Shown here: positions 37,601 through 63,701 of the stretch, piece by piece
Layout: the number at the start of each line of letters is the position of its first letter
Numbering within the stretch: the stretch's first letter is position 1
Virus record (IMG/VR): IMGVR_UViG_3300045973_000209
Span: 1 to 64,000 of that record
Reading direction: 5' to 3' (one strand)
Source of the DNA: a virus
DNA: 64,000 bases
Program-made: the position numbers and the translations under genes
The notes under the pieces: generated by a model
What the model was told of the DNA's origin: nothing
Seen by the model: the letters and a program-made list of their open reading frames with translations, nothing else
The model's database searches: none

Positions 37601-40600
37601 ATAAGTAAGAATTTCTTCACTATCTTTCATATTTAAGATAGTAAGAATTTTATTATCTATATCATTCTTATCTACTTTCTCACTTAATTCTTTATATTCA
37701 GGAGTATTTTTAATATCATCTCTAAACTTATCTAAGGATTCAGTTAATTTAGTCTGTTCTTCTTTACTTCTAGTTCCATTCAAAGCATGAATCATATCAT
37801 GCATTAAAGCAAGAGTTGCAGCAATTTGATCTTTTTTATATAAATCAACCCATGCCTGAGTAATACTAATAGAATTCTTACTAGGTGTATAATATACCAT
37901 AACTGGATTACCAGTCTCTTTATCTATCTTCTTACCAGATACAACTCCATTAAATTTAATTTTACCAGATCTAATAAGAGTATCTATAAATTCAGTAGCA
38001 AAATTATATCGTTTATCTAACTGATAATCTAAAGTAAATTTACGTAAACTAGGAGTAGTATTAGTTTCAGTTTTAATTTTACTAGTATCTATATTAAGTG
38101 ATAATGGAGTTTGATTACCAGTACCATCTTGTCTTAATGTAAAATTACTAATCTTATTTCCTTTTTTATCAACTAATTGTCCTATATCAGTAACAACTGT
38201 ATTACTATTAACTAAATATTCTTCATAACTATTGTGTTTATTACCAAGAATATCAGTAAAAGGTTTTCCACCAAGTAATTGATAATTAACATTTCTATTT
38301 AAATTACCTAATGCTTCAGTAAATTCACTAGGAGTAATAACTTTAGTTATTTTATTCTTACCTTCAGTTCTTTCAGTTCTAAATTTCTTACTATAATAAT
38401 CATATACATAATAATCATTTCCAGATTTAAATCTTATATCATGATTACTAACTACTAACTCATTAGTATGACCTTGACTTTCATGTTGGATATTTAAAAC
38501 AGTTTTAAGTCTATCAGTAATAATTTTATCATTTTTCTGATGTTCTTCAACTTTAACTTGATCTTTTGAATTAAATGCAGCAACTGCAAGTGCTTTCTCT
38601 TTACCAAGATTAATAATAAGATTACTTATTTCTTCTAATACTTTATCACTATTTTTATCTGTAAGTAATTTGCCATTAAGTGAATTAATTTGTACAGGAA
38701 CTACAGTCTTATTTCCTCTATTATCAGAAACCCCCATAAGAAAAGAAGATGAGAATGTCTGTGTTAAACCTTGTTTAACAACAGTATCTTTATTATCTCT
38801 AGTATTTTCAACAACTGTTTTGTTACTATTATTCTGTATAATATAAAATTGAACTTTACTAGGATCATTAACTACTGAAAGGTTTCTCCAGATAATATTA
38901 CCTTTACTATCTTGACTTTTAACTAGAGTACCAGAAGTAATATGTTTAACTTTACTAGTAATAACTTTATCGATATCTGTTCCAAGTATTTCTCTAATCT
39001 TCGTATATCCAATTTGATCTCTAATTAATTTATCCTTCCAGCGAATCACATTTGCAATAATATCATTTCTTTTAAATGCTATAGGAGTAACTCCTTCAGT
39101 ATTCATTCCATGAAATAATACATTTGAAATATGAATAAACGCTGTCATTCCATCATTACTCCTAAGATTTATACTTTTAGGAACTAAATCATATAATATA
39201 CCATGAACATCAGCATCTAATAAGTCACTATATGCTTGTGATACTTCAGCACTACTTGCCTTCATTTTCTTAGCATTATAAAATGCTTGAATTAATGGCA
39301 TGAGTCTATTGATATATTCTAACTTACTATTTGTAGTACTTGCATCATTAATTATATCATCCGTCCAATCTTTACCATCAAAATTATACTTAACTCCATT
39401 GTGAATACCAGCTAAAGTAGGAATAGCCACAAGTGGAATACCGCCTTTATCATTTACAAGTTTCACAATGATAGGCACGTTTTTTGAATCATTTTTATTT
39501 TGGCTGAAGCCTTGTAGACCAGATAATTCAGTATTGATCTGCACAATTACCTGTGAATTTTCAGCTACACCGTTCAAAAGAGTAGTTACACGTTCTAAAT
39601 CTTTATCATTAACAACTTGATCACCATTTTCATTAGTAGTAAAATCAACTTTATATACAAAAGTATTTACTACATCTTCACCACCAGTTGGAGTAAGATT
39701 ATTAATATTGTTAATTTGAAGTTCTTTGTACTCATCATTAAGACCATAAACCTCTATAAGTTTATCTATTGTAATCTTTGCTAAAGTCTTATCAGTATTA
39801 TAGATACGTTTCTGTCCAGTTTCAGGGTTAATTTTACTATTACGAATTATAGTATATGCTTGTTTAAGTGCATCAAAATCTTCTCTTAATTTATTTGCAC
39901 CTACTAATTCACCATATCTTGCAGCAATAGTTTCAAATTTAAACTGTGTACCATGATCAGGAGATTCTTTAAATAATGGATTTTCTCCATCATTAACAAT
40001 ACCTGTTATCCATTTATTGGCTCTATCAACTACATTTGTAGTTATAGGGTTCTGTGATGTGAAGTCAACTATATTTTTAGAAGCCTCAGTATTTAAACTA
40101 TCTTTAAATGCTTGAGCATTATCAATATGTTCTTGTGCTTTATTACTTCCTTCTGGAGTTGTTCCTTTAGTTTCAACAATATATCCTGCATTTACTAAAA
40201 GTTCATTTATAATTTCTTCAAGTAAATTACCAGATTTAAACTGATTAAACTGATTATTTAATTCATCACGAAGTGCAGTTAAATTAGCAGGAGTATATTC
40301 TTTTAATAATTCACTATCATTTACTAATTGAACTAATCTACCAAAAGGTAATGCTTCATTAGGATTTAATGCTAAATTGGTAACTTCTTGTGTAATATAT
40401 TTATTAGCTTCAGAATGTCTTTTTCCAGTAAATTTTCCTTCTACACCAGTAACTCCAACATCTTTTAATATTTTATTAAAAGTATTAGTTAATTCATTAT
40501 TTTTAGTAGTAATATAACTATCACTTTGTTCTTCAGTAATTTTAGTAGTTTTCTGTTGTGCTAACCAAGTACGTCTTTGATTAAGTACGTCAATATATGC

Positions 40601-43093
40601 ATCCAATTTCTCTTTATTAAGTTTTTTAACAGGAGATTTCTCATCTGCAAAAGGATCAACTTTACTTTTATTAAGATCTTCTATTGTTTTATCAATAGCT
40701 GCAATTTTTTCATCTAATGTTGTAGTATTATCTACTTTAAGATCAACATTAGTCTGTTCTCTTATCTTATTTCTAAATGTATCAAATGCTTTACCATATT
40801 CAATATCAACTGCTAATTTTAATTCACCTTCAGTTTTAGAAATACTTTTATTAGTATTTACTACTTCTTCATAAAGACTATTATCTTTATGTAAAAATAT
40901 ATCATATAATCTTGCTTCTGCTTCAGAATTAATAATATCTTCTACTGAATTAAAATCACCAGTAGCTTGTGTATCTTTTAATTCTTTATCTTTAATTTTA
41001 AATTCATCTTTATATACTTGTGCTCTTTCTTGCATTACTTTTTTAGCAATAGGATCACTTTCTTTACTAATTTCATTATCTATAGTTGCAATAACTCTAG
41101 CATTAATAAGATTATCTAAAGTACCATCAAAGTCTTTATCTTTGTTCTGTTCTTTAAGTGCTTCTAATGCAGGATTATTAGTTCTAAGATTTGCTGACTG
41201 CTGTCTTGCATTATCACGAAGTTTAGTAGTTTGTTTAATCTCAGCTTTTTGATTTATTGCTTCACCAATTATAAGATCTCTTAAATGTTCTTTTCCAGTA
41301 GTAGCAACAAATATCTTACCATATACATTTTTATATGTATGCTCTGCATCAACTATATCAGATTTAATCTTAGCTAAATCTTTATCAAAATTACCATCAC
41401 TACTAACACCCATTTCAATCATTTTTTGTTTGAAATTTGGATGCTCAATCATATCAAGAAGTAACTGAACATTACCTACTCTACTAGCATTAAAACCTAA
41501 TGTATAACCCATTGAAGTTTTAATTCTATCAATTCTTTGTTCTTGACTTTTTTTAATTTCCTCAGGAGTTCCTTCAAATTTCTTATTGGTATTTATATCA
41601 ATACCATCTTGAGTTTTCTTTATATTATCAACATGATTTAATATACTAACGTATCTATTATTAATTTCTTCAATTCTCTGATCAGTTCTATGTGGATCTT
41701 TATAGTCTTTAACTATTTCATCCATACGTTCAACAGCTCTAGTGGCGCCACTAAATATAACACCACCTGCAAATCCCCAAAATGCTTGTTCCCATGTAGA
41801 TGGATTTCTAGCATATACTTTAAATCTATCTATAAGATCATTATTATCAACTATAATATTACCTTGATCATCTTGATGACTATTACCACTATTTGTCATC
41901 TGACCAAGTAACATTTTGCCATAATGATTACCTTCATTCTGAGCAACAGCATTTACTAATTCTTCAACACCTTCTCCAACTTGTTCACCTAAGAATATTT
42001 TTGCTCCTTTAAGAAAAGTACCAGTATTAAACTGTGCTTTTGCAACTGCTTCAGCACCTTGAACTCCAGTTGCAGTAGCTTGAGCAACTTTAGTTGCTTT
42101 AGTAGTTAACCAATCTTTAACTCTAGTTTCAACTTTAAATCCTTTAAATATTGGTGCTAATTGCATAGCGTCAAATACTACGTTGACTGCATTAGTTGCA
42201 TAATCTCTCCATGCTCCTTTAGATGCAATAAAATTAGCAAGTTCTACTTTACTAGGAGTTCTACCTTCACTAAGAAAATCTTTACCTACTTCAGAATTTA
42301 ATACTTCATTATATTTTTTATCATCTTGAAACTGATTTAGTGCATCAGTTTTAACATTATTAAAAGTCTGATTAGATTCTCTAAAGTTTTCAGCATTACG
42401 CATAGTTATAGCACTATGAGTAAGTTTCTGCCAATACTTTTCAGTATCAAATACACTAGCAACTGCATTTACACCTTTAGAAATACCTCGTTCAAGTTTA
42501 GTTGCATCTTGAATTTCAGACATTGCTTTAAGTGCTTTAGCAAAATATCCTGCGACTTTTTCTTCTCCAAGTGCAGGAATTAACATTCCTAATGAACTAA
42601 AAGTACTTACACCATTATTTGCCCACCATGCGGGATCTTTCCAATCAAAACTTTTATTAGGATTATATCTTAAAATAGGAAATTTATCTTGTAAAGTATT
42701 GGTTAAATCATTAGCAAACTGAGTAAGAAAATTATTAAAATCGGCATCTCCTTTAGTAAGTTCATTATGTATTGCTTGAGGTACACCAATTATTCCCCCA
42801 ATTCCACCAACAACACCTTGTCCAAGTATTTCTCCTACTATTCCTTGAGTAAACATATTACCAAACTTGCCAGCAACACTTTGATTAGTTGCAGCTTCAC
42901 GATCAATTGCTTCAGGATATACATTAGGAACAAATCTTTTAAAATGATCTGTAGGTACATCAAAGTTAAATCCTGCTAAATTAGATTCAGTAGGATTACT
43001 AGAAGGAAGTGTACCATATTTAGATGGATCTAAAAGAGTAGGCTTCGGAGTGTCTTTAACTTCGAACTTAGTAGGATCAAGTAGTTCAGGCAT
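25619..43093 (-). CDS. giant virion protein (5,824 aa) containing a DxDxD two-barrel RNA polymerase signature
   Basis: Uninterrupted 17,475-nt ORF. GSDFDMDTVYAF with DFDMD encoded at 33080-33094 (aa 3334-3338). N-terminal Gly-zipper GIVGEILGQGVVGGIGGIIGV. Hydrophobic segment near the C-terminus. Confidence 0.75.
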   Translation of the reverse strand: MPELLDPTKFEVKDTPKPTLLDPSKYGTLPSSNPTESNLAGFNFDVPTDHFKRFVPNVYPEAIDREAATNQSVAGKFGNMFTQGIVGEILGQGVVGGIGGIIGVPQAIHNELTKGDADFNNFLTQFANDLTNTLQDKFPILRYNPNKSFDWKDPAWWANNGVSTFSSLGMLIPALGEEKVAGYFAKALKAMSEIQDATKLERGISKGVNAVASVFDTEKYWQKLTHSAITMRNAENFRESNQTFNNVKTDALNQFQDDKKYNEVLNSEVGKDFLSEGRTPSKVELANFIASKGAWRDYATNAVNVVFDAMQLAPIFKGFKVETRVKDWLTTKATKVAQATATGVQGAEAVAKAQFNTGTFLKGAKIFLGEQVGEGVEELVNAVAQNEGNHYGKMLLGQMTNSGNSHQDDQGNIIVDNNDLIDRFKVYARNPSTWEQAFWGFAGGVIFSGATRAVERMDEIVKDYKDPHRTDQRIEEINNRYVSILNHVDNIKKTQDGIDINTNKKFEGTPEEIKKSQEQRIDRIKTSMGYTLGFNASRVGNVQLLLDMIEHPNFKQKMIEMGVSSDGNFDKDLAKIKSDIVDAEHTYKNVYGKIFVATTGKEHLRDLIIGEAINQKAEIKQTTKLRDNARQQSANLRTNNPALEALKEQNKDKDFDGTLDNLINARVIATIDNEISKESDPIAKKVMQERAQVYKDEFKIKDKELKDTQATGDFNSVEDIINSEAEARLYDIFLHKDNSLYEEVVNTNKSISKTEGELKLAVDIEYGKAFDTFRNKIREQTNVDLKVDNTTTLDEKIAAIDKTIEDLNKSKVDPFADEKSPVKKLNKEKLDAYIDVLNQRRTWLAQQKTTKITEEQSDSYITTKNNELTNTFNKILKDVGVTGVEGKFTGKRHSEANKYITQEVTNLALNPNEALPFGRLVQLVNDSELLKEYTPANLTALRDELNNQFNQFKSGNLLEEIINELLVNAGYIVETKGTTPEGSNKAQEHIDNAQAFKDSLNTEASKNIVDFTSQNPITTNVVDRANKWITGIVNDGENPLFKESPDHGTQFKFETIAARYGELVGANKLREDFDALKQAYTIIRNSKINPETGQKRIYNTDKTLAKITIDKLIEVYGLNDEYKELQINNINNLTPTGGEDVVNTFVYKVDFTTNENGDQVVNDKDLERVTTLLNGVAENSQVIVQINTELSGLQGFSQNKNDSKNVPIIVKLVNDKGGIPLVAIPTLAGIHNGVKYNFDGKDWTDDIINDASTTNSKLEYINRLMPLIQAFYNAKKMKASSAEVSQAYSDLLDADVHGILYDLVPKSINLRSNDGMTAFIHISNVLFHGMNTEGVTPIAFKRNDIIANVIRWKDKLIRDQIGYTKIREILGTDIDKVITSKVKHITSGTLVKSQDSKGNIIWRNLSVVNDPSKVQFYIIQNNSNKTVVENTRDNKDTVVKQGLTQTFSSSFLMGVSDNRGNKTVVPVQINSLNGKLLTDKNSDKVLEEISNLIINLGKEKALAVAAFNSKDQVKVEEHQKNDKIITDRLKTVLNIQHESQGHTNELVVSNHDIRFKSGNDYYVYDYYSKKFRTERTEGKNKITKVITPSEFTEALGNLNRNVNYQLLGGKPFTDILGNKHNSYEEYLVNSNTVVTDIGQLVDKKGNKISNFTLRQDGTGNQTPLSLNIDTSKIKTETNTTPSLRKFTLDYQLDKRYNFATEFIDTLIRSGKIKFNGVVSGKKIDKETGNPVMVYYTPSKNSISITQAWVDLYKKDQIAATLALMHDMIHALNGTRSKEEQTKLTESLDKFRDDIKNTPEYKELSEKVDKNDIDNKILTILNMKDSEEILTYGLTDIDFARYLDTIKSTEDTTGKTFWSKLKDLIREIAKSFGISTKLDELNNIFNQFIGGEKISSISNTSKELLGEIPTDTTAQEYADEFGEDGVEKPIISFEKDSNSKTFKPVSYSSTVNKELTGSPFEIDEEKNILNVLSNITIERLASKYKGVKGSDVIVDQIRTEIRKEFWLQYTQRKKDGNITPDQETLILKALRELRDNDKFWKYFRIHLSNQYGYNINEQEDYIQDIELLEKSWDQTDVLTKNPLSTVADQIKNLINRTYEVNPNLSTIVDGKVVYRTNEKTPTGFANTLNFSEVGNKLIDLMRGSLTKEDMLTALFNYASDQNTVLSKSLYNIHKELSNNPELLNAWFTSFDKAILDSYRDLTREVSTESDTLHEININHGNKNAIEYFIANEWTNNIVSKGENGFFDKDWYDEYTKQYKEVSALSSNFSKLPAEAAAGIVQLYNLLRMEVSIDNLNYEFKNYQDTFINTMIAPLRNIAGIPGKDYSKEKNVPYIVQLQTNPKVAFNEFGNLLRFASKVKYFREDHFNFSSTNLNNNLVFDATNPSFLSNFFKKLEDTDEVVFNALVNHTKILSNQHSLLLWGDQIVEGEIVKKGRGIFDYTIVNNIRQATGINKENLGRIKSFGYEGTKDLNEGFANEYADLTKHDWTLKNLIYYFGGGETIKENNVSKKLTAIFPLINPSDRKNTRLFESPIVELSRADFENLLIGINTKGEEGLKLVREIPIFKAIYLNAVDELIAMNTAKQILFQLDNNGRVLVDENQNPLVKQEILDGTQSGQIYYHYKEDENGNKVYCQFVKKENGHYGLDTKRSGNIFDLNNLTIKVGSAQTIFSDIFINGINFTKHLLTSDSLNNALHTPLNKEDVNSTFKNRLEQFILNFVSSQIINANNTLTVYKDFLEKAYVKKENLNREEKSYILKDKQFNHAIAEYALNSYLFNIEQVRLFYGSVADYKSNVDLNKRGGQVIANGIPSVHKGIYYGATINDVKLKSKVYRHKINTVTLGLGYKLEDIRVSRLNKQYTEEELKNPKLFTDAEREVYNIVSPYLSNDSANAVSLIRFDEFVKRISGFGLTDNYKTIINKVRNGQELDRGDTTKFASMQKNFYYSMDYNEFLQKMVPTQVKNAEVVLTPALIKDLQLENLDKMMDKLNLSQINLRSAEKEGSLYIANIADEDGNITDDNTLEQELTKATRSYNYEGLRMQLEVSNSLYEDSITMSRQFVKKVIENIPDELEYKVKDKKLQGNALKQHYFDLINSNIYQDACRTLTPFDVRVDKNGRIIGELNYDNISTILEKEGIDRNLTKNIIYSITKDDEGRAMLPIFFNTNSNKWENILTSLFTNGVTNQKFPGLKAAQMSSLFMNKQKGVKWSQLTSTEGVNWHKSMEATTNVDGKEVQRKDLKLHSTILYDEKEGKGNMIQEAEVLLPRWAKQFYKEDANGKKEYVDINTLSDEVRTMIGYRIPMEAKYSAYVFKVVGFLPDDNGPSIVLPDDFVTQTGSDFDMDTVYAFIYGLQTNYTTETVNGEEHHTPIVERIPFIEGDSLSNINSRVQSIMQDRSQLVHVLSTEYNNKEITDLIVGMNKAMSSYFELIKDNPLEYKAYQQYQNEIKAYEDQIAKATGATKTKLIRDKFNIYKYDVATFDHYKESPEFKDVEKKIFDIISSWNENEQNTKKARENRIMDVYYGILTNPYHYQETIATSNFNDITNAKKLTDKGLSLTNDKINNLTIDGQQDYREKSHQGRDLKGISLALDRFNSIAQVARINLTEKLNDDKNKISKFSTLPVIEYLVTSSARHKQIQDLYGDDVKFEKRGVGENINEYAIVTHRFIGNNPTNTFKNVEGKLINSYSAQTTANILDNVAFPLPSNINEYTVSIWKMLVSLGSNFETSTSLINQPIIRDLTDTFFLNANNVKRGSEIEQTKRKFQTLLYRIILAQTDKHIKGWDTAIEDGKLIFIGGGDKMKDEQYKYLGYENGRGINLNSEELLKNINTITFTNETSKEVESAITDKNIDRLKEVENQLRYQLQILETFKHLKSYSDAVTDGTNTLNTDKIGAGPTFSVTRKLLYDIKRTNEQGILEINGASAMSRIFPKYLLGKNSPIKSSYPTLEHFLTFSNLLSLQAFSRHFIGESQFYTLIKEEINKYTTDKKYDDKLTNKLTSYLNNSLLKDLPWLNDLSIEEKRTILGIETELDYSLDLKTPESIEVFNQLSVANQVELLRYHNDYGNDHLLNHLRTRLQDSEIKKYRHHQIEYVNNDIPDTISQTFNDLWYSDNEFERVTARNLLRYEYIVNGFGFGYTSFSKIIPNTLFSYANEPFMEGSNNEKGIGLSDHLYNKLDEVNNLEFDEDEKNRPQEMTQYSDQIFNSNYKERFLKSNWQDDNIVPNAALLTRYDKTIQNEDGSYGRSVRYFQVRKDGIIVMPIKTLDNIPTGKIANKVKERDVIKLNHVVKNADENEVTKWQLYQAYRSFIDVDEWGNRSGTMYYYPINKLEKSENEERSIFEDNNQFKDGTEIQSPDDYIGMINHLNLKESIDKKMFTTRVIASNLQSIREGKTTAFTVGGLDSAEVWSKLKVGEYVQINLDGEYVKVTKPLMNINLTGLPARLKWAEENQLPIERLHEVKDGIEHQNRTDLFEFHFEYVGNLDAVMKDANATFSNEGDTDEDFNQTSTTISSTKDRFNEIKQTAIKNINKGNIGYYTIFRNIQDKEQNLKANTKEELIKLIDETISPIGFGNNTNNIVGKTFDFNVGEDEKGEQYRQKVIINNVRLLPDNNYNIIAKNKNNGNEYNMVTDQNGSIISYTRNGKTFKGNINDEIVFLADSYVNPISDIKPVSYTSSTNQSINNAIDSVKPFIDKTTGSYANRIKILTGVGTLKDAVKLLGDKQFQVLIEQNDLATLATGLTTVLKQYDFDLSDPKTETKKGGILARLNEFENMDMNTILTDAITRKSFTGFLSRTHSFFMGATSFDLLKSVDSNELLPEEKVVTDVIKQLQNLLPTINNAQNRVDALSTKFYEQNLQKFTSNPEILAGLRKIMDVGDDESYVQLKLDALADTNNPFVANMVKQYMVNMINGEDDASKNIGELEGLLRKAFAGKNITSLTDADFSKYLETKDGKRTGKLIQKYDMDKFYADKKRHFQYLIKTYGAKSQSYYNGSKAWYNKNEQRNISDEEFENIVRQKKEDLSASEFTAWKKRNIREVDGEVRFLVGDSSLATPSDLYINPKWTALKDDKLYQKFVEILTKYTDYFGRATVLNKGFIPTLQEHGEDTRSISEKVKDWIAVNKIHDESEHFVGENDEMVYRLTIPMVDYFSQEKEIEIPHRTKDELQSDYEKRVVGAGNASGKGRFKTIGEVFNRNKEIKTANDAYHAGKLNYNLADVFTRFIKEATTYKVKADMKHEYDLGLFKLRDLKFNKRQSTGEIIKNKAASKILDKNITGTVNGEGTNIEKHYAEWLEAIFYGNFDIEEGAWTTISKMLMKYTSMKNMWFNMTAGVNNVIIGKIQIKMEAFAGWYFKSENLRKADKMYISTIPDIISSLGSTRSKTLTGAIIKKMDITQNTNERDFSTGMLRKQLFSWSSAYFMNDMGEHYMQNVSTLAMLDHYRIINGNIKSLADYQFDNYKEALQSILNDEEKVKLDAYLKARFAEEEFKEAKHDYLRDYILTLPISKGNAFVEAKKVIDKDSLVKFEVNPKLHDAFYLDENGYAQLQDEVEIDGKKVSTMLNENEYAKFRNKAVKVVQKQQGIYNKEDANTMSRRALGKMVIQFRKYMRPGWNKRFGTKFGKSFWTESRDEYDKGSYVSLYRFLTSPLNRTKVMDDEEGKQFQSAMGRIMSDYGKFITNIGIYWNTLDDFEKGNIKRALLEFGYLAMCLLAGAMVKHLKPTDDDKDWGYDLTAYEIDRALSELMMYTPFGVINEGTKILKSPAAVQGTAIDLYKAAASLVSYPFQTDKTRVYSTGVYKGDTKLKVNTVKLVPIWNKVQQIQRINKFNKYYILFRG

Positions 43094-45530: not shown

Positions 45531-47993
45531 TTAACGCATCATCATCATTGATTTCTTCTTGCCTATTCTGCCACCATATTTACGTTCAAAGGTATTTCCA
45601 ATAGTTCCTTTCCATCTAGACTCTAAACTTTTCATCATATCGCTATCACGAAGAATCGTATTAAACTCAGAAATAGCACCTTGATTATTTGCAAGATTTG
45701 CACTAGCAGCATCACCTAATTCTTGATTTGCATTAATTCTAGCATTAAGTTTCATAAGATTACTCTGATTTGTAATCTCATTATTACTAGTATTATTTTG
45801 CATAATATTCATGGTATTCTGATTACGAATACCCATAGACATTCTATTTCTATTTCCAAATATAGAATTTAATTGACTTATTCTACTAGAATTAGCATTA
45901 TTTTTTAAAGCACTTGCAGTAGCAGAATCCATTCCATCTAAACTAGATATACTTGAAGCATAACCTTGATTAACTGAACCAACTTGATCATTAATATCAA
46001 CATTATCATTAAGTAAATAATTTTTATTTAACTTAGGTTTATATGATAAAGATTCATTAAGACTATCATTTATAAGACCTTTCTGATATTTTAAAGTCTT
46101 ATTACTCATAAGTAAATTACCTAATGTACCAGCAGCACCAACTATAGTATTCATATTATTACTACCTTCAAGTGCAGTTCCAATATTATTACCAATAATT
46201 CCTAATTTACCCAAGAAAGAAGTAGATTTAGATAAAGTATTAATATTACCCATTTTTCTTAATCCAGACATACTAACTCCACTATTAAATTTAGGAGTAA
46301 TAGGACTAATACCTAGATTTAAACCACTTTTTGCATATTTATTTTTAGGTGCAACTTTATCATTCATATTAACTAAATTTGCTTGTTCTACTTCAATTTG
46401 TCTTACATTAGAACTAGTTTTCATATTTTCTAAATCCATAAACTTCTGTGCAAAACCTAATCTTTTACTAAGTACAAATGGTACATTACTAATAGATTTA
46501 TCATTAACAAGTACTTCACCAGGTTCTCCAACTGCAATAGTCTTATTATTTTTCTTTATGGGGATATTCTGTCCAGATTCATGTGTACCACTAGTTCCTC
46601 CTCTAGAATTAGTAATAAGTTTATTACCATCACCTAATGACATTCCTTTAACATTAATTGGACCACCCATTGCATGATGAAATTTTCTAGCATTAACTGC
46701 AAATTGAGCCATACTTCTAACATGAGCATTAGATGAATGTAATGCTTCACTAGTAGTTTTGCCAGTCCTTTGTTTATATGCAGTAAATCTACCTCTATGA
46801 GAAGGTTTAATCATACCTCCTTTACTCATAAATAAACTACTAGAATTATTCATACTTATATTATTTAATTCATTAAAGTCATTTGCTCTAACTCCTTTTT
46901 TATATAATTTATCACTTTCTTGTTTAGCAATATTATTTGCTTCCATCATTTGTTGTGCAAGTCGTTTCTGTTCTCTAGCTTTTTTATTTTCACTTGCATT
47001 ACCAAATAATGCACCACCTATTACACCTACAGCAGCACCAACTCCTGTACCAATAGGACCAAACATACTTCCCATACTAGAACCCATTTGAAATCCATTA
47101 CTTGCTCCAGTTAATGCACCACCCCAATCTTTACGAGGTAAATTTGCATAATATCCATTACTATATTTCATTGTAGATGTATTATTACTAAGAGTATGAT
47201 TATATACAGAATCAGCGTAATTATAGAGATCCTTATTATTAAGAATAACGGACTTTTCTCTGTCAAGTTTTGATTGCCTATCTTTTTCACCAGAATTATA
47301 TTTAGTACCAGAATTATTTTTAAGAAATCTCATTTCTTTTCTAAATGGTTCTGCAAGTGTACTATCTACTTTAAAAGAGTTTATATAGTCAGAATATTCT
47401 TTTGCATTTTGTCTTCTTTCAATATCGTCTTTATCTTTAACATAATATCCACCACTAGTTTTACCAATTCTTTCTGGTGGAACTAAATTATTTTTTAATC
47501 TAAATTGATCATAATCCATTGGAATACCTTCAACTCTATTTGCATTCCATGCTTGCATTACCATTGAAGGAAGATATGTTGAACCCAATAGTTTATTTGC
47601 ATTATACGGAGCAGTATTACTACCAAGTCCACTTTCTCGCATAGCTGTTGATAAAGCATCCATTAAAGGAACATTTTCTTTTGCAGCAGCTTTAGAAAGA
47701 TCTGCAACAACTTGTTTATTGATAATTGCACCATGTCTAATACCAGGTTTACCATTTTCAATATCTTTTATTCTAAAAGTAGAATTAATTGCAAGTGGTG
47801 CTGGAGAATCAAATTTATCTATTATATCTGCATATTTATCATTACCATTATAATATACTCTATTTATATCATATGCATTATTTAAAATAGGATCAGTTGT
47901 TGTTGGTTTAGGAATAGCAGTATATTTACTTAAATCAATTCCATTTCCAGCTTTAGGAATTCTTTTTACCTTATAATTGCTAGTATATTTCAT
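45531..47993 (-). CDS. putative ejection/internal virion protein with glycine-zipper membrane segment and possible lysozyme-like N-domain
   Basis: GGALTGASNGFQMGSSMGSMFGPIGTGVGAAVGVIGGALFG (about 46990-47125). AMRESGLGSN...SMVMQAW is weakly SLT-like (about 47560-47640). N/S-rich low-complexity C-terminal third. Confidence 0.5.
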   Translation of the reverse strand: MKYTSNYKVKRIPKAGNGIDLSKYTAIPKPTTTDPILNNAYDINRVYYNGNDKYADIIDKFDSPAPLAINSTFRIKDIENGKPGIRHGAIINKQVVADLSKAAAKENVPLMDALSTAMRESGLGSNTAPYNANKLLGSTYLPSMVMQAWNANRVEGIPMDYDQFRLKNNLVPPERIGKTSGGYYVKDKDDIERRQNAKEYSDYINSFKVDSTLAEPFRKEMRFLKNNSGTKYNSGEKDRQSKLDREKSVILNNKDLYNYADSVYNHTLSNNTSTMKYSNGYYANLPRKDWGGALTGASNGFQMGSSMGSMFGPIGTGVGAAVGVIGGALFGNASENKKAREQKRLAQQMMEANNIAKQESDKLYKKGVRANDFNELNNISMNNSSSLFMSKGGMIKPSHRGRFTAYKQRTGKTTSEALHSSNAHVRSMAQFAVNARKFHHAMGGPINVKGMSLGDGNKLITNSRGGTSGTHESGQNIPIKKNNKTIAVGEPGEVLVNDKSISNVPFVLSKRLGFAQKFMDLENMKTSSNVRQIEVEQANLVNMNDKVAPKNKYAKSGLNLGISPITPKFNSGVSMSGLRKMGNINTLSKSTSFLGKLGIIGNNIGTALEGSNNMNTIVGAAGTLGNLLMSNKTLKYQKGLINDSLNESLSYKPKLNKNYLLNDNVDINDQVGSVNQGYASSISSLDGMDSATASALKNNANSSRISQLNSIFGNRNRMSMGIRNQNTMNIMQNNTSNNEITNQSNLMKLNARINANQELGDAASANLANNQGAISEFNTILRDSDMMKSLESRWKGTIGNTFERKYGGRIGKKKSMMMMR

Positions 47994-50900
47994 AATATAC
48001 TTTTTATATTAGGACTAATATTAGAAATTCTAAACTTTTTATTAGCAGTTGTATTGTCATATATCAGTCTGACTATTATAAAGCTACCAATAAAAAATGA
48101 CTTTTCAAAATATTCTTTAGACAAATTTAATGCAGAAGTGATTAAATTTCCATTAGCATCAATAAATTCACTGTTTAAATTAGTGAGATAATCCAATGCA
48201 TCATTATATATCCATTCTCCATCTAAAAATACTGCGTTACCAACTTCTATTGGTTCATGACTAATAGGATCATAATCATAAGAATGTTTAACAATACTTA
48301 TTTCATTAGAGCATTGATTCTTAGAATAAACTAATAATCTACTAATTGTTTCATCCCAATAATTTATTCCATCTTTTTCAACATTAGTAACCCATTTAAT
48401 AGATTTAAGTAAAAATCTATCTTTAGTATTCTGATTAAATATAAAATCAATAGAAGAAGAAAGACATTTATCATATGAATATTCTATAATTGCAGGACTT
48501 GTTGCATTAGTTTCAACATTATTATATGCACAATATGCTTCTGTTGTTAATACTGCCCATTCTGCATTATTTATAATATTTGATATTAAATCTCCATTAC
48601 GATATTTTGTTTCTGCAAGATTTTGTACTACCCATTCTTGAGTACCTATACAAATTGTTGTATAAATCTTTCCATCATTTCCTGTATATATACCCGTTTC
48701 CCCATTAGTAAGAATTGTAGAATCTTTAATAAGACGAATACTATGACCAACGTTATATAAATCAAGGCCAGCATTTATATGATTTGGCATTACTTCATTA
48801 TTATTATAATGAAGCTCCCATACATGAGCACTTGATATTCCAGAACTATAATTGGAAAGCCATCCTGCACACATTGCATTCAATGTAGTAAATATACCAG
48901 TATCTGATCGTCTTCCTCCTCCTAATGCTTTAAAACCACTACTATTAGTTGCATCTGTATTTGGACTATTCCAATAAATAAAGCCAATTTCTTTTAAATC
49001 TCCTCCTTTGTATTGACCACCAATAAAATCAACTAGTGTTAACCATTCAGTACGACTTGGAAGATGTGCTCCACTAGCAGCAATATGTCTTGCATCAGTT
49101 GCAGCATACCAATTATATAAATAACCATATTTTATAATACCAGGTATAGTATTTGATATATGAAAAGTATTTGGATTTCCGGTAAGTTTTTTATAAAGTA
49201 TATTATCACCACTTAGTTGATATATTCCATTACTATTCCATATATATTTATCAGGAGTATAATCATGAAAACATACCCAAAACATTTTTTCAAAATGAAA
49301 TGATAATGTAAAACTAGATAAATAATCTAAAGTATTAATTATATCTTCAATATTATCATAATAACACATTGCACCATTAATATCATTAGACCATTCAGTA
49401 TCATCTACAATATTTGGTATTAAACTTCCATCATTATATCGTTTACTATTATAGTTTGCAGCTAACCATTCTTGATTTCCAATACATATTGTAGGATATA
49501 TATTTCCTTCTGGATCAATCATACTTCCAGATTGACCATTAGTAAGTACTGTATTATTTTTTATAAAACGAATAGAAAAACCATAACTATATAGATTACC
49601 TTGTCCACTAATATCAGCATATCCATAATTTAAAGCATATGCTCTTTGAAGTCCTCCTCCAAGATCAGTATTTGTCCAAAAATCACCATGTAATGTTTTT
49701 CCTGAAAAATCTCCATTATCTGTTCGTATTCCAGATGGCATTCCATTAAACTTTGTTATATTTGTTGCTCCTAAATTTGGAGTTTGCCAATGAACAAGTC
49801 CTAATTCTTTTAATTTACCGCCAGCAACTGTATATCCTCCAAGATAATCAACTAATTCTTGCCATTCATCATTGGTTCCAATATGGTAACCTTCAGGACA
49901 AAATATAGATACATTTTCTCCAGGTAAACATCTAGCACCAACAGTATCATTAGACCATTCAGTATTATCAAGTAATTCAGGAATTAAAGTACCATTATTA
50001 TAACGTGTACAACGATAATTCTCTGCCATTATAACTTGATTTCCAATCTTAACAAGAGGATAGATATTACCATCATAATCAGTTACAGTTCCATCACCTA
50101 AATCTGAATCATCTTTTATAAATCTTACTGATTCTCCTTCATTCTTAGAATTACCACTCCAGCCAGTTCCATTATTTGGAGTTAAATCATCTGAAATACT
50201 AATTAAAGTCCAAATTGAACCTACATCTGGAGCACTACTGTCATATTCTGTTGAAAGCCATCCTTGAAATGCCTCTTTAAAATCACTATATGTACTTCCA
50301 TTACTTAATCTATGCCCACTTGCAAGCATATTTAATCCATATTCATTAGTACCTGGAGTAACACTATTATTCCAATGTATTAATCCAATTTCTTTTAATT
50401 TATATCCATTTGTATATCCACCTATATCAGTTCCTAATTGAAATATTTCATCTCTTGTAGGAAGATGATAACCAATAGGAGGAAATAAACTATTAGTGGC
50501 ACAGTACCAATTATAAAATCTACCCCATTCTGCAGGATTAACTAAAACTACTTTTGTCTTATCAATAGCAAACTTATTATATAATGCGCCATATCCATAA
50601 ATAGAAGATAATGGTAGTTTATTTTGTATTGTTAATAATAATCTCTTATATAAATCATCATAACCTAAATTAGCATGTATATCTTTAGGTTGTGCTGCAA
50701 GAGATATTAAATTTTTAGTTTGATTTCTAAACCAATCTTCAATACCTAATTTACTAATTTCATTTGCTTTATCAGAAATAATATATATACTTCCTTTATC
50801 TAAATCAACTGTAACTAATCCATATGGAGTTAATATAGTTCCTTCTCTATTCCAAGGTTTAATATAACTACCATCAGCATCAAGTAACTCTTGTACTGGT

Positions 50901-53900
50901 CTATCAAACATTTCACCAGTTTTTAATGCTGCATCAATATTATCAGTAACAAGTTTATCAACTACAATACCTCTAAATATACTATATTCAGTTTGAATAT
51001 AAACTATATAATCATTACCAATAATTTTATAAATTGCACCTTTATGATTAGGAATATCAATATAATCTAATATTTTAAATTTCCTCCAATACATAGAATT
51101 TGCACCATCAGGTTGTTTAATAGAACTATATATTCTATCTTGAAACTTAACAGAAATTGGTGTTAATTCATTATCAATATTATCTTGACGAAGATTATTT
51201 AAAAGATGATAATCATTATTATAAAAATAATAATTAGCAATTCCAGCATCTACCATTGCTGTTATATATTCTTGTACTAAAGGGGAACCAGTCCATTTAA
51301 GTATATTAGTTGCAGGATAAAACTTTTCATATTCATTTTTACCTTCATATCTAAGACCACTATTTAATACACTTTCTATAGGAAAATACCATATTGCAGC
51401 ACTAGTAGTAATAACTCCAGTTATCACAGAATTGTGTCCAATATATGTATCCCCCCCATATAAAGAAAATACAGGAGTATCTATGAGTGGTTTAACAACT
51501 CCTGTACTTATAAGTTCTTGATTACTAAAATCTAGATAAACATTATCTTTAATATTAATTAAATTTACTAGATGTTTATCAAAAGTATTAGATAAAGGTT
51601 CAAAATAATAACAGTTTTCTTTACCTTCATTTGAAGGAACTGTAGCACTATTATAAGCAGGAAGATAACTTATCTTTTTAACTTTACTAATTTTTCTAGT
51701 AGTATTTAAACTATAATTAGTAACTTCTACTATATTACTAGATGAACTATAATCTGTAGATTCAAGATGTAGTTCAGATTTAATATGACTAGGTTCTATA
51801 TTAAGCAAATTAACCATACTATCAAATCCATGGAATCTATATCCTATACCATCTGCTAATGCAATACTTTGATCTAACATTAATTGATTATTCAAAGTAC
51901 GTTTAGCATATAATATTTCCCATCCATCTACAGCACTTTCTAATGAGGTTCTAATAGTAGGATCTATACTAGACCAATTTAAACTAATTCTTAATCCAAG
52001 TATATCTTGATTCATACTACCTTCATATATTGAAAGATCACATGAACCACCATCATTTATTCCAATACTGCCACCTGTAGTAGCAGCTTCCATATCTATC
52101 TGAATAGTAATATATTCATCTACTAATAGTGGACAATCAGCAGTATAATTAAAATGTAATGTTTCTACGTTTTCATTATATATAGGTTGTACTTTAGGTT
52201 CAGTATATAATATGCTTTCTATAAAATTAACCCCTACTTTAGAAAATTTCTTAATTGTTACTGTAGCTCTACCTTTATATTGAGTCATACCTTGAGTATA
52301 ACTAGCAACAACACATTGAATATCTAAATCAATATGTAGCGTTTGAGTTGTAGTAGCAGTATAAGTATTATAATCATCCCCTGCATCACTAGCAGGAATC
52401 CATGTTCCATATTTTGGAAGACTAGTTGTAAATATACCATGAAAAAAATGACCATTATATAGAAAATCATTAGCTATCAAATGTAAATTATCAAGTACTA
52501 CATTTTTTGCAGTATTATGTAATACTCCATTTTTCCAACTATGTATTTGTCCAGCAGATGGAAAACGATGATGTCTAACTTTAGAGTCTGCTAAAATAGT
52601 ACCATATTGATTATTATATCTTTCATTTTCATTTTCCCAAAATCCCATCTTGCCATAGTACTCTCCAGAATCACTTTCTATAGTTGCAGTACTTCCAAGT
52701 TTATATTCTTTTATACTATCACCATCATAAGTATTTGTATCAACATCTTCTCCATTTTCAGCAATTCTACCAGGAAGGTGATAAATACCATAGAATCCAC
52801 CTCTCTTATCTCTTAATCCTAAATATAATGCATATACTTCATCACTTCTAAATTCTCTGAAATTAAAAATAAATGTAGAATCTTTATAACTATTTTTACT
52901 TGTACTAAGAGATACAGTTTGATCAGATACCCAATTTACTGTTAATTTAGGTATTACATTATCATATATTTCAGCTAAAGATACTTTATCTATCTTAGAT
53001 GGATTTCCTAAACGTAATTTTCGATTAGATTGTGTAATTGTTTTAATAGTATCAAAAGAAGGAGATGATATAATAACTTCATTAAGATTAAATGGAATCA
53101 ATTTATCTATATCATCTATTAATACATCAGTACTATTATCACCTATTTTAATTCTCTTTGTAATAAAGCACAATGTTCCAGTTTCAGTTCTTTGTATTAC
53201 TGCAAGTTTAAAATATTTTCTTGTAATATCAAGATTAGAAACATTTATAGTAATTGCTTTATTTGTAACTACTAAAGTAGCATTTCCTTTAAATTGCCTA
53301 TATGCAGTAAGAATATCATTTTCTGTTATAAAAATGGGATTTGATATTATACCAAAATTAGTATTAACATCAGGTTCAATTTCATATGTTAAACTGACAA
53401 AATATGCTGCGGCAGGAAGTCTACCTCCAGTAGTAATAGTACTACTTGTACTTGCTGTATTATTTAAAGCATTGAAATTATTATGAGTAAATTCTGGAAA
53501 TAGATAAATATCTTTTAAATCAAATTCATTATTTATTGTAATAGGAGAAGTCAATGCTCCACTTATATTTATTATCATAGGTTTATGAAAACCTGTTGTC
53601 CATGCTACAATAAGATCACCTTTTGCATTATAACAATGGACACCTTCTATATAAATATCAGGAAATGTGAGAGGATTGTAATTTAAGAAAGTATCTATAG
53701 AAGTTAATATAGTAATTAAAGTTCCAGTTTTAGATAGATGTTTAATATATGTAGTACTATTATTATAGATATATAAAATAATATCATTAGGTGTTGTAAT
53801 TCTACCTATAATCGTGCCAGTAATTTCATTATTAAAAATAGTATCTCCAGGTTCATTTTCAACTTCATCAAACCCTCTACTAATTAAAATATTTTTTGCA

Positions 53901-53965
53901 TGTGCCCATGTATATAACGCACTATCTGCAAATTTACCATCTAATCGAAGTCCTTTAAGATTCAT
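47990..53965 (-). CDS. large tail/receptor-binding protein with repeated FISUMP-type modules
   Basis: 1,991-aa ORF with ATGA overlap onto the downstream gene. C-terminal third has repeated D.DGN.Y..V.IG.Q.W.A.N...Y.NG / YG.LYNW / LP...EW..L...GG...GG.LKE.G..HW motifs. Confidence 0.75.
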   Translation of the reverse strand: MNLKGLRLDGKFADSALYTWAHAKNILISRGFDEVENEPGDTIFNNEITGTIIGRITTPNDIILYIYNNSTTYIKHLSKTGTLITILTSIDTFLNYNPLTFPDIYIEGVHCYNAKGDLIVAWTTGFHKPMIINISGALTSPITINNEFDLKDIYLFPEFTHNNFNALNNTASTSSTITTGGRLPAAAYFVSLTYEIEPDVNTNFGIISNPIFITENDILTAYRQFKGNATLVVTNKAITINVSNLDITRKYFKLAVIQRTETGTLCFITKRIKIGDNSTDVLIDDIDKLIPFNLNEVIISSPSFDTIKTITQSNRKLRLGNPSKIDKVSLAEIYDNVIPKLTVNWVSDQTVSLSTSKNSYKDSTFIFNFREFRSDEVYALYLGLRDKRGGFYGIYHLPGRIAENGEDVDTNTYDGDSIKEYKLGSTATIESDSGEYYGKMGFWENENERYNNQYGTILADSKVRHHRFPSAGQIHSWKNGVLHNTAKNVVLDNLHLIANDFLYNGHFFHGIFTTSLPKYGTWIPASDAGDDYNTYTATTTQTLHIDLDIQCVVASYTQGMTQYKGRATVTIKKFSKVGVNFIESILYTEPKVQPIYNENVETLHFNYTADCPLLVDEYITIQIDMEAATTGGSIGINDGGSCDLSIYEGSMNQDILGLRISLNWSSIDPTIRTSLESAVDGWEILYAKRTLNNQLMLDQSIALADGIGYRFHGFDSMVNLLNIEPSHIKSELHLESTDYSSSSNIVEVTNYSLNTTRKISKVKKISYLPAYNSATVPSNEGKENCYYFEPLSNTFDKHLVNLINIKDNVYLDFSNQELISTGVVKPLIDTPVFSLYGGDTYIGHNSVITGVITTSAAIWYFPIESVLNSGLRYEGKNEYEKFYPATNILKWTGSPLVQEYITAMVDAGIANYYFYNNDYHLLNNLRQDNIDNELTPISVKFQDRIYSSIKQPDGANSMYWRKFKILDYIDIPNHKGAIYKIIGNDYIVYIQTEYSIFRGIVVDKLVTDNIDAALKTGEMFDRPVQELLDADGSYIKPWNREGTILTPYGLVTVDLDKGSIYIISDKANEISKLGIEDWFRNQTKNLISLAAQPKDIHANLGYDDLYKRLLLTIQNKLPLSSIYGYGALYNKFAIDKTKVVLVNPAEWGRFYNWYCATNSLFPPIGYHLPTRDEIFQLGTDIGGYTNGYKLKEIGLIHWNNSVTPGTNEYGLNMLASGHRLSNGSTYSDFKEAFQGWLSTEYDSSAPDVGSIWTLISISDDLTPNNGTGWSGNSKNEGESVRFIKDDSDLGDGTVTDYDGNIYPLVKIGNQVIMAENYRCTRYNNGTLIPELLDNTEWSNDTVGARCLPGENVSIFCPEGYHIGTNDEWQELVDYLGGYTVAGGKLKELGLVHWQTPNLGATNITKFNGMPSGIRTDNGDFSGKTLHGDFWTNTDLGGGLQRAYALNYGYADISGQGNLYSYGFSIRFIKNNTVLTNGQSGSMIDPEGNIYPTICIGNQEWLAANYNSKRYNDGSLIPNIVDDTEWSNDINGAMCYYDNIEDIINTLDYLSSFTLSFHFEKMFWVCFHDYTPDKYIWNSNGIYQLSGDNILYKKLTGNPNTFHISNTIPGIIKYGYLYNWYAATDARHIAASGAHLPSRTEWLTLVDFIGGQYKGGDLKEIGFIYWNSPNTDATNSSGFKALGGGRRSDTGIFTTLNAMCAGWLSNYSSGISSAHVWELHYNNNEVMPNHINAGLDLYNVGHSIRLIKDSTILTNGETGIYTGNDGKIYTTICIGTQEWVVQNLAETKYRNGDLISNIINNAEWAVLTTEAYCAYNNVETNATSPAIIEYSYDKCLSSSIDFIFNQNTKDRFLLKSIKWVTNVEKDGINYWDETISRLLVYSKNQCSNEISIVKHSYDYDPISHEPIEVGNAVFLDGEWIYNDALDYLTNLNSEFIDANGNLITSALNLSKEYFEKSFFIGSFIIVRLIYDNTTANKKFRISNISPNIKSIL
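48505..50600 (-). repeat. tandem protein-level repeats of a Fibrobacter succinogenes major paralogous (FISUMP)-like domain
   Basis: Unit ends SVRFIKDD (about 50110), SIRFIKNN (about 49560) and SIRLIKDS (about 48725). Unit starts DYDGNIYPLVKIGNQ, DPEGNIYPTICIGNQ and GNDGKIYTTICIGTQ. Confidence 0.7.
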
Positions 53966-53979
53966 TGGTATATTGTCTA

Positions 53980-54729
53980 TTATACTAATCCTGTTTGTCC
54001 AGTAATACTATTTTTCAAATGCAATGTGGCTTCTTCTCTAAATGTATCACTTATAGGTAAATTCAGATTAACTATAAATGTTCTAATTAACTGACTCATT
54101 TGTGATCTTTCTTCAGAATCTAAAGCACTTACTTGATTCCTACCTTTTTTACTTTCTTGAATCCACATACTATATGGATTAGTAATAGGATTCTTACTAT
54201 CTAAACTAAATATAGGATGTTTATGACCACGTTTTAATATAGAATATATAATATACCATTCTATAGCACCCTGTACAATAGAATTCATAGGAACTCTAGG
54301 AAAATATACTAATAATTCAGGATCATATTCAATAGGAAGTGCTTGATAATATACTCTAGCAATACCATCTTCAAGAGATGTTACAATATAACCATTTTTA
54401 ATTGTATATGTATTACTACCATCTAATTGTGCATTAAAAGAAGGCTCCTGAATAGCATTTATTTTATTTAATCTATTAAGTTTAAATCCATCATGAAATA
54501 CACCTAATATTCTTCTTATATCTTGTGGGGTATCATCTGGTAATGAAACAATATAATCTACTATAGAAATATCAATATACTTTTCTTCATATAAACTAAC
54601 TAATTGCATTTGATCCATAGCATCTGCTATCCAAAGAGGTGTTCTAGGAATCCAATCACTATAATCAATAGAAAAGTTATTATCTATACGAGCAATAATC
54701 TCTTTAGCAGAACCTAATTGATATATCAT
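53980..54729 (-). CDS. hypothetical structural-module protein
   Basis: 249-aa ORF, first gene after the tandem terminators. Confidence 0.6.
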   Translation of the reverse strand: MIYQLGSAKEIIARIDNNFSIDYSDWIPRTPLWIADAMDQMQLVSLYEEKYIDISIVDYIVSLPDDTPQDIRRILGVFHDGFKLNRLNKINAIQEPSFNAQLDGSNTYTIKNGYIVTSLEDGIARVYYQALPIEYDPELLVYFPRVPMNSIVQGAIEWYIIYSILKRGHKHPIFSLDSKNPITNPYSMWIQESKKGRNQVSALDSEERSQMSQLIRTFIVNLNLPISDTFREEATLHLKNSITGQTGLV

Positions 54730-62872: not shown

Positions 62873-62876
62873 AATA

Positions 62877-63701
62877 TTAATTAAAAGGATGTGTTTTTCC
62901 AGCACCACTATTATATAATGTAGTAACTTCAGTTGAAGTTAATCCTCTATTCCATATAGCAATTTCATCTAATATACCAACTATTCCATTTAAACTATTT
63001 ACTAATTCATTACCAAAGTTTAAATAATTAATTGTTGGAAGAACTCCAGTTGTAGTACCTCCAGTATTAGACACATATTTATCTACAGTATTTAAATATA
63101 TCTTAGCATTTTGCCCAGTACCAGATAACACAACAACTAAATTATACCACGTGTTTATTACATATTGATTATCACTAGCATAAAAATATCTATTTGCACC
63201 ACTTACATCATATACTTTAAAATATAAACCATCATCTGTTCCACCATAATTCATAATTATACTTATTCCATTATATGGCGCAGTTGCATATACTTCATCA
63301 AATAAATAATAAGTTCTGCCTGTAACATGTGGTAATGCAGTTAATTTAAACCATAATGAAATAGATAATGCTGAACTACTATATTGTATATTAGTTAAAG
63401 TAGCAACATTAATAAAATCACCAATATTTGAAAATGTAACTCCTTTATTTATTATACCTGTTGCATTTGAAGTAGCGCCACTTAATGCAGCATTTGCACT
63501 AGTTCCAACTGTTGCAACTTCTGTAGTTCCACTAGTAGCATCTAGTTTCCAATAAGCAATAAGTCCATTTAATAATGTTGAACTAGTACTTCCTACTGGA
63601 TAAGAACTTTGTACAACTCTTTGTAAATTACGTATAGGTGTTTGTGCAGTAACACTTATTACTATACATAAAAATAATGGAAATATTAATAGTTTTCTCA
63701 T
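62877..63701 (-). CDS. LamG/concanavalin-A-like lectin domain protein with N-terminal signal peptide
   Basis: MRKLLIFPLFLCIVISVTAQ; LIAYWKLD...LSISLWFKL...NTWYNLVVVLSG...KIYLN...GILDEIAIWNRGLTSTEVTTLYNSG matches the Laminin_G_3 pattern. ATG at 63701 (ATGA overlap) preferred over the listed 63728 start. Confidence 0.6.
   Translation of the reverse strand: MRKLLIFPLFLCIVISVTAQTPIRNLQRVVQSSYPVGSTSSTLLNGLIAYWKLDATSGTTEVATVGTSANAALSGATSNATGIINKGVTFSNIGDFINVATLTNIQYSSSALSISLWFKLTALPHVTGRTYYLFDEVYATAPYNGISIIMNYGGTDDGLYFKVYDVSGANRYFYASDNQYVINTWYNLVVVLSGTGQNAKIYLNTVDKYVSNTGGTTTGVLPTINYLNFGNELVNSLNGIVGILDEIAIWNRGLTSTEVTTLYNSGAGKTHPFN

Follow-up and report, generated by a model that had tools for sequence, protein, structure and literature searches.

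How a domain typical of bacterial surface lipoproteins came to be repeated within a very long tail protein of a phage, and what it might do there, was the question raised by a 64,000-nucleotide (nt) stretch of viral DNA (positions 1 to 64,000 of IMG/VR record IMGVR_UViG_3300045973_000209; hereafter the window). The gene concerned lies on the minus strand at 47990..53965 and encodes a protein of 1,991 amino acids (aa), the C-terminal third of which contains blocks of the FISUMP type (Fibrobacter succinogenes major paralogous domain). The original prediction took these blocks for a host module that had been captured and multiplied to serve as the receptor-binding, distal part of a tail protein taken for a trimer. 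A different answer was reached here and was given a probability of roughly 0.6, namely that the protein is the muzzle of a crassvirus, and that permuted FISUMP modules from a phage pool have been placed in two of its loops, probably for surface binding.

FISUMP domains and the protein that carries them

The repeated blocks were found to be FISUMP domains. All the motifs quoted in the original prediction were present where it had placed them in the minus-strand open reading frame (ORF), among them GRFYNWYCA at aa 1148-1156 (nt 50498-50524) and AYCAYNN at aa 1810-1816 (nt 48518-48538). The profile search that it had called for confirmed the family, PF09603 matching the protein with E=1.8e-55 and 188.6 bits (cutoff 33.9) in four stretches and TIGR02145 (NCBIfam) with E=4.6e-55 and 187 bits (cutoff 41.65). 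The profile matches spanned aa 1124-1816, in good agreement with the region 48505-50600 first proposed. Single pieces scored 50.5, 89 and 56.5 bits against PF09603 in a piecewise scan, which gave the following assignments:

aa 1145-1284, PF09603 profile positions 48-187
aa 1305-1469, PF09603 profile positions 1-187
aa 1495-1541, PF09603 profile positions 3-45
aa 1539-1612, no family matched
aa 1612-1747, PF09603 profile positions 49-187
aa 1773-1821, PF09603 profile positions 3-47

Three units were recognized, with mutual protein identities of 37-45%, and only one of them kept the motif Cys-Pro-x-Gly-Trp. Their similarity in DNA was limited to stretches of 49-70 nt at 71-80% identity in a repeat search of the 64-kb window, in line with the predicted old age and divergence of the units.

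The carrier was identified by sequence homology as the muzzle (gate) protein of a crAss-like phage, so that the expected virion protein of the tail end was recovered, not as a generic or trimeric tail protein but as a crassvirus muzzle, which is hexameric in PhicrAss001. A profile of 44 muzzle family members (A1, with the 1,991-aa protein as its first row) matched PhicrAss001 gp44 (PDB 7QOK chain A, 7QOL and 8CKB) with E=2e-51 in two stretches, gp44 residues 10-392 and 928-1305, backbone homology thus covering ~380 residues at the N-terminal end and as many at the C-terminal end. A single-sequence search of the PDB sequences with the 1,991-aa protein gave no match, and gp44 was reached by the family profile only. 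The homologs were proteins of 1,175-1,804 aa, the nearest of which were 50-59% identical, free of FISUMP and listed with PF25731 crAss_MUZ (as taken from a precomputed Pfam column). The distant relative P0018, scanned with Pfam, matched both PF25731 crAss_MUZ and PF25729 crAss_MUZ_C. Additionally, the N-terminal part of the protein distantly matched crAss-like phage cr127_1 in a tblastn search. The gene neighborhood was also the one expected of a muzzle gene, with a homolog of ring protein R1 upstream and ORFs of 820, 805 and 5,824 aa downstream; in PhicrAss001, R1 (gp43) and the muzzle (gp44) follow the same order. The layout of the window was crAss-like, with a plus-strand replication block (SF1 helicase, SNF2-type helicase, ATP-dependent ligase and DUF932) and a minus-strand block of very large ORFs. 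PHROGs gave no match for the 1,991-aa protein and almost none for ten neighboring ORFs.

The muzzle of PhicrAss001 was described as a hexamer of ~1 MDa at the tail tip, formed by a seven-bladed beta-propeller with inserted immunoglobulin (Ig)-like and 'crass-fold' domains, and a part in gating ejection was proposed for it, as was contact with the cell, the latter from its position alone (PMC10172136). By homology with gp44, the 1,991-aa protein would also be a hexameric tail-tip gate, the hexamer being known for PhicrAss001 only, from cryo-electron microscopy.

Two loops of the propeller region as insertion sites

The FISUMP units do not form a distal C-terminal array, as had been predicted, but lie in two insertions nested in loops, and the conserved aa 1836-1991 follow them. 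This arrangement was revealed by a BLASTP comparison with the FISUMP-free relative P0004 (59% identical), which returned three colinear backbone blocks:

Block 1, query aa 1-1115, P0004 residues 1-1114
Block 2, query aa 1553-1601, P0004 residues 1195-1242, 53% identity
Block 3, query aa 1836-1991, P0004 residues 1248-1401, 57% identity

The features of the gene and of its upstream neighbor, all on the minus strand, are given below, where the N-part of a unit corresponds to PF09603 profile positions 1-47, the C-part to positions 48-187, and y0 and y1 denote the YGxLYNW-type strands at the start of insert 1:

53980..54729, minus, ring protein R1 homolog, 249 aa, immediately upstream of the muzzle gene; PF24228 CrAss_Ring_1 (a precomputed match on the identical gene in locus L001)
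47990..53965, minus, muzzle protein gene, 1,991 aa, homolog of PhicrAss001 gp44 (family profile A1 against PDB 7QOK chain A, E=2e-51)
50627..53965, minus, conserved muzzle backbone, aa 1-1113, 59% identical to P0004 over aa 1-1115; by homology, N-terminal beta-propeller blades and the Ig-like and crass-fold region
49310..50626, minus, insert 1 in the loop called site 1, aa 1114-1552, with y0, unit 1 (y1, C-part and N-part) and unit 2
50573..50593, minus, y0, a degenerate extra YGxLYN strand (YGALYNK), aa 1125-1131, at the start of insert 1
49913..50533, minus, FISUMP unit 1, aa 1145-1351, permuted order
49352..49912, minus, FISUMP unit 2, aa 1352-1538, permuted; a C-part without YGxLYNW, followed by an N-part
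49163..49309, minus, conserved backbone segment between the insertions, aa 1553-1601, approximately gp44 residues 1199-1245
48461..49162, minus, insert 2 in the loop called site 2, aa 1602-1835, holding FISUMP unit 3
48518-49135, minus, FISUMP unit 3, aa 1611-1816, permuted order
47990..48460, minus, conserved muzzle C-terminal region, aa 1836-1991 and the stop codon, 57% identical to P0004 residues 1248-1401

A canonical third unit interrupted by 74 inserted aa was ruled out, since the supposed insertion aligned to the muzzle backbone of P0004. In the profile alignment the two sites mapped to gp44 residues ~1198 and ~1247, and because these positions fall after the IG2/crass region of gp44 (residues 318-1021; PMC10172136), the sites were placed by alignment at two loops of the C-terminal beta-propeller region. 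PhicrAss001 gp44 has essentially no loop at either position, whereas 439 aa and 236 aa were counted here at sites 1 and 2, respectively. Among the 44 family members, site 1 was 5-13 aa long in most relatives, but about fourteen members had 39-87 aa there, seven of these falling at 78-87 aa, and one member each had 157 aa and 371 aa; site 2 measured ~9 aa in most relatives and 81 aa in three. The backbone segment between the sites was 44-61 aa long across all 44 members. This 47-aa segment would correspond to four beta-strands, or about one propeller blade, and with about one blade between them the two loops would be expected to lie on the same face.

Close relatives (50-59% identical) presented either bare loops or an unrelated module of ~80 aa at these sites. 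The ~70-80-aa module, rich in threonine, glycine and valine (T/G/V-rich; consensus like VRSGTGGVTVTVTTTxxHxLxTGD..CNGxFxITVTGLTTFTY), was found at site 1 in P0004, P0009, P0010, P0011, P0013 and P0014 and at site 2 in P0003, P0005 and P0006. Since it occupies one site or the other depending on the phage, the two loops appear to act as sockets for interchangeable modules. The T/G/V-rich module at site 2 of P0003 matched E1_FCCH only weakly and below threshold (E=2.4e-4), and that at site 1 of P0004 gave no Pfam match. The 78-aa site-1 insert of P0019 appeared unrelated to this module, and Pfam returned nothing above threshold for the site-1 inserts of P0027 (157 aa) and P0029 (371 aa). Binding-type domains were joined to the muzzle in another way in the distant relatives P0036, P0037 and P0042-P0045 (~1,780-1,800 aa), which have cadherin/Big_9 repeats and a DUF5977 end in a C-terminal region enlarged to 676 aa versus 156 aa here.

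The presence of FISUMP in muzzle loops was found to be rare but recurrent. None of 80 crAss-like muzzle loci from IMG/VR contained it, and a search of 1.84 billion cluster representatives produced one further full-length case, P0225 (1,919 aa); in this distantly related muzzle, site 1 likewise holds the y0-y1-C-N-C-N module. Permuted units were also seen in the fragment P0121, at site 2 and at a third position close to the C-terminus. This patchy distribution among relatives is consistent with an exchange of modules or with several insertion events at permissive loops. In a second FISUMP-bearing crassvirus (L003 186-3835; JGI 3300046710, 4,420 bp) the muzzle gene was called as two ORFs of 566 and 649 aa, which abut at a TAA-ATG junction in different frames and could reflect a frameshift, a sequencing error or a split gene.

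The metagenomic origin of the DNA and the single known member of the protein cluster could suggest that the long ORF is an assembly chimera of a muzzle gene and unrelated FISUMP genes. This is scarcely credible, as the identical protein was recovered from a JGI contig of 92,699 bp and again, separately, from a Logan assembly (SRR35489367), the frame is continuous, conserved backbone stands before, between and after the inserts, and P0225 has the same architecture. GC at third codon positions (GC3) is also uniform, with 8.0-8.1% in the inserts versus 7.1% in the backbone.

Permuted order and origin of the modules

The order of the parts was found to be swapped in every unit. Along the chain the parts follow each other as C, N, C, N, backbone, C, N instead of in the canonical N-then-C order, and only the central N+C pair fits the PF09603 model end to end. 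Each insertion starts with a C-part and finishes with an N-part, and insert 2 has exactly one of each. AlphaFold2 modeling of aa 1596-1840 (insert 2) gave a mean predicted local distance difference test score (pLDDT) of 89.0 and a predicted template-modeling score (pTM) of 0.85, with the N-part at pLDDT 97-98; as this insert, with its one C-part and one N-part, was predicted as one compact domain, the units were interpreted as circular permutants of the modeled domain. The start and end positions of a permuted unit are covalent neighbors in the canonical chain, so its ends are probably close together, and such adjacent ends would suit nesting in a hairpin loop.

The same division was observed among 122 homologs, of which 60 were of the form (CN)n, ending a few residues past an N-part, and 50 of the form (NC)n, with a C-part at the exact C-terminus. 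A cysteine after S-V-R was present in 61 of 69 canonical motifs versus 9 of 61 permuted ones, which mostly have leucine, and the units of the 1,991-aa protein have F, F and L in its place. Likewise, a signal-like hydrophobic N-terminus was found in 28 of 47 canonical and 6 of 56 permuted proteins. A secreted or lipoprotein context with conserved cysteines was described for FISUMP (PMC5758913), whereas the domains here are internal to a virion protein, nested in another protein and devoid of a signal peptide context. The motifs DxDGNxY..IGxQxW, YGxLYNW, PxGWHLP..EW, GGKLKE and SxRxxK are nevertheless common to these units and to canonical FISUMP (PF09603/TIGR02145). Canonical proteins co-occur with type IX secretion system (T9SS) sorting domains, dockerins and FN3 domains. 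The Pfam and TIGRFAM model boundaries consequently misdescribe about half of the close homologs, and a permuted model would improve annotation.

A second level of rearrangement was suggested by insert 1, which was colinear end to end with standalone proteins of ~430 aa (P0052, P0062, P0064, P0068 and P0074). Common to all of these are a pair of YGxLYNW strands at the start (y0 and y1), an end just past the second N-part and the absence of YGxLYNW between the first N-part and the second C-part. When C-N-C-N proteins were classified by the placement of YGxLYNW, 30 had two at the front and none in the middle, 13 had one at the front and one in the middle, and none had two at the front and one in the middle. 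The number of strands thus equals that of the units while their placement differs between the classes, which points to a nesting of unit 1 in unit 2 in proteins of the first class. The YGxLYNW strand of unit 2 would have moved to the very start of insert 1 as y0, and unit 1 would lie inside unit 2, directly after its first strand, the whole module again having adjacent ends. AlphaFold2 gave insert 1 a pLDDT of 91.7 and a pTM of 0.78, with the y0 region at pLDDT 93. The pairing of y0 with unit 2 is drawn from these sequence patterns and is accordingly offered as probable.

The provenance of the modules was approached through the identities of single units. The best outside match was P0061 for unit 1 and P0071 for unit 2, both with 48% identity, and P0139, P0107 and P0094 for unit 3, with 50-52%, all in the permuted register; each unit was therefore nearer to outside units (48-52%) than to its sisters (37-45%), and triplication in place was rejected on these values. 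Recent horizontal capture from a donor of different composition was rejected on GC3. The original prediction of direct capture of a Bacteroidota or Fibrobacter lipoprotein module, duplicated in place to become the receptor-binding, distal part of a tail trimer, could draw on the abundance, among bacterial homologs of 40-45% identity, of canonical FISUMP proteins that bear T9SS domains, dockerins or a signal-like N-terminus, and on the infection of Bacteroidota by crassviruses (PMC10136315). The unit identities nevertheless point away from it, GC3 carries no sign of recent foreign origin, the inserts are internal and not distal in the chain, and the PhicrAss001 homolog is hexameric. Moreover, insert 1 is colinear with whole standalone proteins, those inspected lying in phage tail modules, and the distant muzzle P0225 has this same module in the corresponding loop, so that this origin was judged improbable.

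All six permuted proteins whose surroundings were inspected have phage or phage-like settings:

P0074, final gene in the tail module of a siphovirus, behind the tape-measure and distal tail genes
P0064, 57.9-kb contig, just ahead of a gene for lysozyme
P0155, directly upstream of a gene for a Pel9A-like beta-helix, the contig also bearing an SU10-type capsid gene
P0061, adjoining a Pel9A-like beta-helix protein, with a 5,005-aa ORF nearby
P0140, phage-like contig of 81.9 kb
gp88 of Rhodobacteraceae phage LS06-2018-MD05, L089 5019-5648 (OP947161.1), 209 aa, directly after a virion structural protein

The only canonical-order protein inspected, P0122, had bacterial neighbors (GH16, UvrA and a toxin-antitoxin pair). 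The protein gp88 is a single permuted unit (y-C-N), its sole annotation being the note 'Fibrobacter succinogenes major domain', and it indicates that FISUMP is also used by a phage outside the Bacteroidota/Fibrobacter host range. Three phage proteins of the same fold were found in BFVD (best E=2e-18), two of them labeled Fibrobacter succinogenes major paralogous domain, from which it follows that FISUMP in phages has already been recorded by automatic annotation. The statement that the domain is typical of Bacteroidota and Fibrobacter lipoproteins was hence retained in so far as canonical-order homologs look bacterial and secreted, and was narrowed by its occurrence in several phage proteins. 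The standalone permuted proteins of phages (P0064, P0074, P0062 and gp88) share with the present units the permuted order and the setting in phage structural modules; they differ in being free-standing, 209-520 aa long and located after tape-measure or distal tail genes or beside tailspikes, whereas the module is fused into muzzle loops here, and their overall identity is only 33-39%. The module was most likely acquired from a pool of permuted FISUMP domains in phage tail proteins and not directly from a host lipoprotein; that it ultimately shares an ancestor with the bacterial FISUMP proteins is not disputed.

Proposed function, known parallels and genome setting

According to the proposed scheme, two neighboring loops of the propeller region would have accepted FISUMP, a two-unit module at site 1 and a one-unit module at site 2. 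Three units per subunit would amount to 18 per virion if the muzzle is hexameric, and the domains would surround the tail tip as a multivalent ring of lectin-like adhesins, binding a glycan or protein of the host surface and adding avidity, with receptor binding possibly coupled to the opening of the muzzle gate. The hexameric copy number and the orientation of the loops are presumed. From the earlier proposal of a receptor-binding module, the surface-binding role was kept as a reasonable inference and the distal position in the chain was abandoned. The position of the muzzle, where the first close contact with the cell takes place, supports binding, and so do the diversified ligand-binding proteins of the FISUMP/DUF1566 class (PMC5758913) and the link of such a domain with host range in Bacteroides uniformis phages (PMC8143477). 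The standalone permuted genes, which are last in the tail module or stand beside beta-helix tailspikes, occupy positions typical of receptor-binding proteins, making the permuted modules candidates for this function.

The units might instead bind something else, such as animal or environmental glycans (e.g., mucus), or merely stabilize the tail tip with no role in host recognition. The biochemical function of FISUMP is not established (PMC5758913), the bare loops or the unrelated 80-aa module of related phages imply that the inserts are dispensable for muzzle function, and the 80 muzzle loci from IMG/VR are free of FISUMP. Nevertheless, permuted modules elsewhere end tail modules or adjoin beta-helix tailspikes, the usual place of receptor-binding proteins, and in Bacteroides uniformis phages differences in a domain of this class, diversified by a diversity-generating retroelement (DGR), track host range (PMC8143477), which makes such a role unlikely, though less so than host capture.

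FISUMP/DUF1566 ends are a recognized class of DGR-diversified ligand-binding proteins (PMC5758913, PMC8143477) and DGRs occur in several crAss-like families (PMC12386605), so the present units were also considered as DGR targets, as in the Bacteroides 'Bacuni' and other crAss-like phages. The 64-kb window contained no template-repeat-like copy of any FISUMP segment, only the diverged units being repeated, and no reverse transcriptase was found among the ORFs scanned, which were a part of those in the window, ~29 kb of the 92.7-kb contig lying beyond it; this explanation was considered very improbable. In comparison with the DGR variable proteins (the Legionella LdtA class and the 'Bacuni' phages), the units are of the same or a related domain class, presumed to serve host adhesion in phages, and differ by the lack of a template/variable repeat pair in the window and by not lying at the protein's C-terminal end.

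Several observations weigh against the reading of permuted modules in muzzle loops with a probable role in surface binding. A direct Pfam scan of the 1,991-aa protein at E<=1 returned PF09603 only and no crAss_MUZ; the same scan also failed on P0004, P0008 and P0015, so the missing match was ascribed to the reach of the model and not to absent homology. The close relatives lack the inserts. The survey of genomic contexts comprised six permuted proteins and one canonical protein. The length variation published for muzzles was assigned to the crass and IG2 domains and not to the propeller region (PMC10172136). On the structural side, Foldseek searches of the two confident models against the PDB yielded nothing at E<=0.001 (best E=0.07 and E=0.2, TM<=0.15), where permutation and a loop-rich fold may limit sensitivity, and a sequence profile search of the PDB with the FISUMP module yielded nothing at E<=10. 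A C-type lectin or FGE-like fold is assumed for FISUMP/DUF1566 in the DGR literature; since the models have no counterpart among solved structures, the C-type-lectin fold was not confirmed for these units, and no experimental structure of the FISUMP fold appears to exist.

A bolder interpretation, held tentatively but ahead of any of the rival explanations, is that the permuted lineage would be a phage-specific plug-in adhesin that moves among siphovirus and podovirus tail proteins and at least three muzzle loops, nesting even in itself, and that the gate itself would be a receptor-binding device with 18 domains. If this were true, receptor binding could directly trigger gate opening. Host recognition by crassviruses is largely obscure and their tail fibers are poorly resolved, and a FISUMP-bearing muzzle would provide a concrete candidate for adhesion at the tail tip. 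The two loops, together with the third in P0121, would be sockets of use for the annotation of host-range determinants and for engineering.

The find is composed of known kinds, these being the FISUMP domain, the muzzle protein and tail-tip proteins that form a ring and carry nested binding modules. The last are exemplified by the 'evolved' Dit proteins of siphophages (lactococcal and Lactobacillus phages), in which carbohydrate-binding modules are inserted in loops of a baseplate protein. These also combine a ring-forming tail-tip protein with modules in surface loops, the binding sites being multiplied by ring symmetry, and are unrelated to the present case in carrier protein (here a podovirus-type nozzle/muzzle propeller), in inserted fold and in virus order. 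A literature search of limited coverage brought up no account of permuted FISUMP or of muzzle proteins with FISUMP, and the permutation with its phage association, the two-socket propeller arrangement and the likely domain-within-domain nesting appear to be undescribed.

Additional observations were made on the surroundings of the gene. Pfam gave no family above threshold for the 820- and 805-aa ORFs or for any third of the 5,824-aa ORF (25619-43093, minus strand), which lies downstream of the muzzle gene and of the two former ORFs and, by its position, could be a cargo or virion-RNA-polymerase-type giant protein of crassviruses. The DUF932 match within the replication block was located at 22077-23120 on the plus strand (E=2.3e-51). 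The window is extremely AT-rich (28.4% GC), and the third-codon-position GC of the muzzle gene was 7-11%. One relative was labeled as a Candidatus Omnitrophica metagenome-assembled genome, probably owing to a binned viral contig. An 890-aa protein encoded at 60236-62908 on the minus strand matched a Pel9A-like right-handed beta-helix (E=2e-18) and is tailspike- or depolymerase-like.

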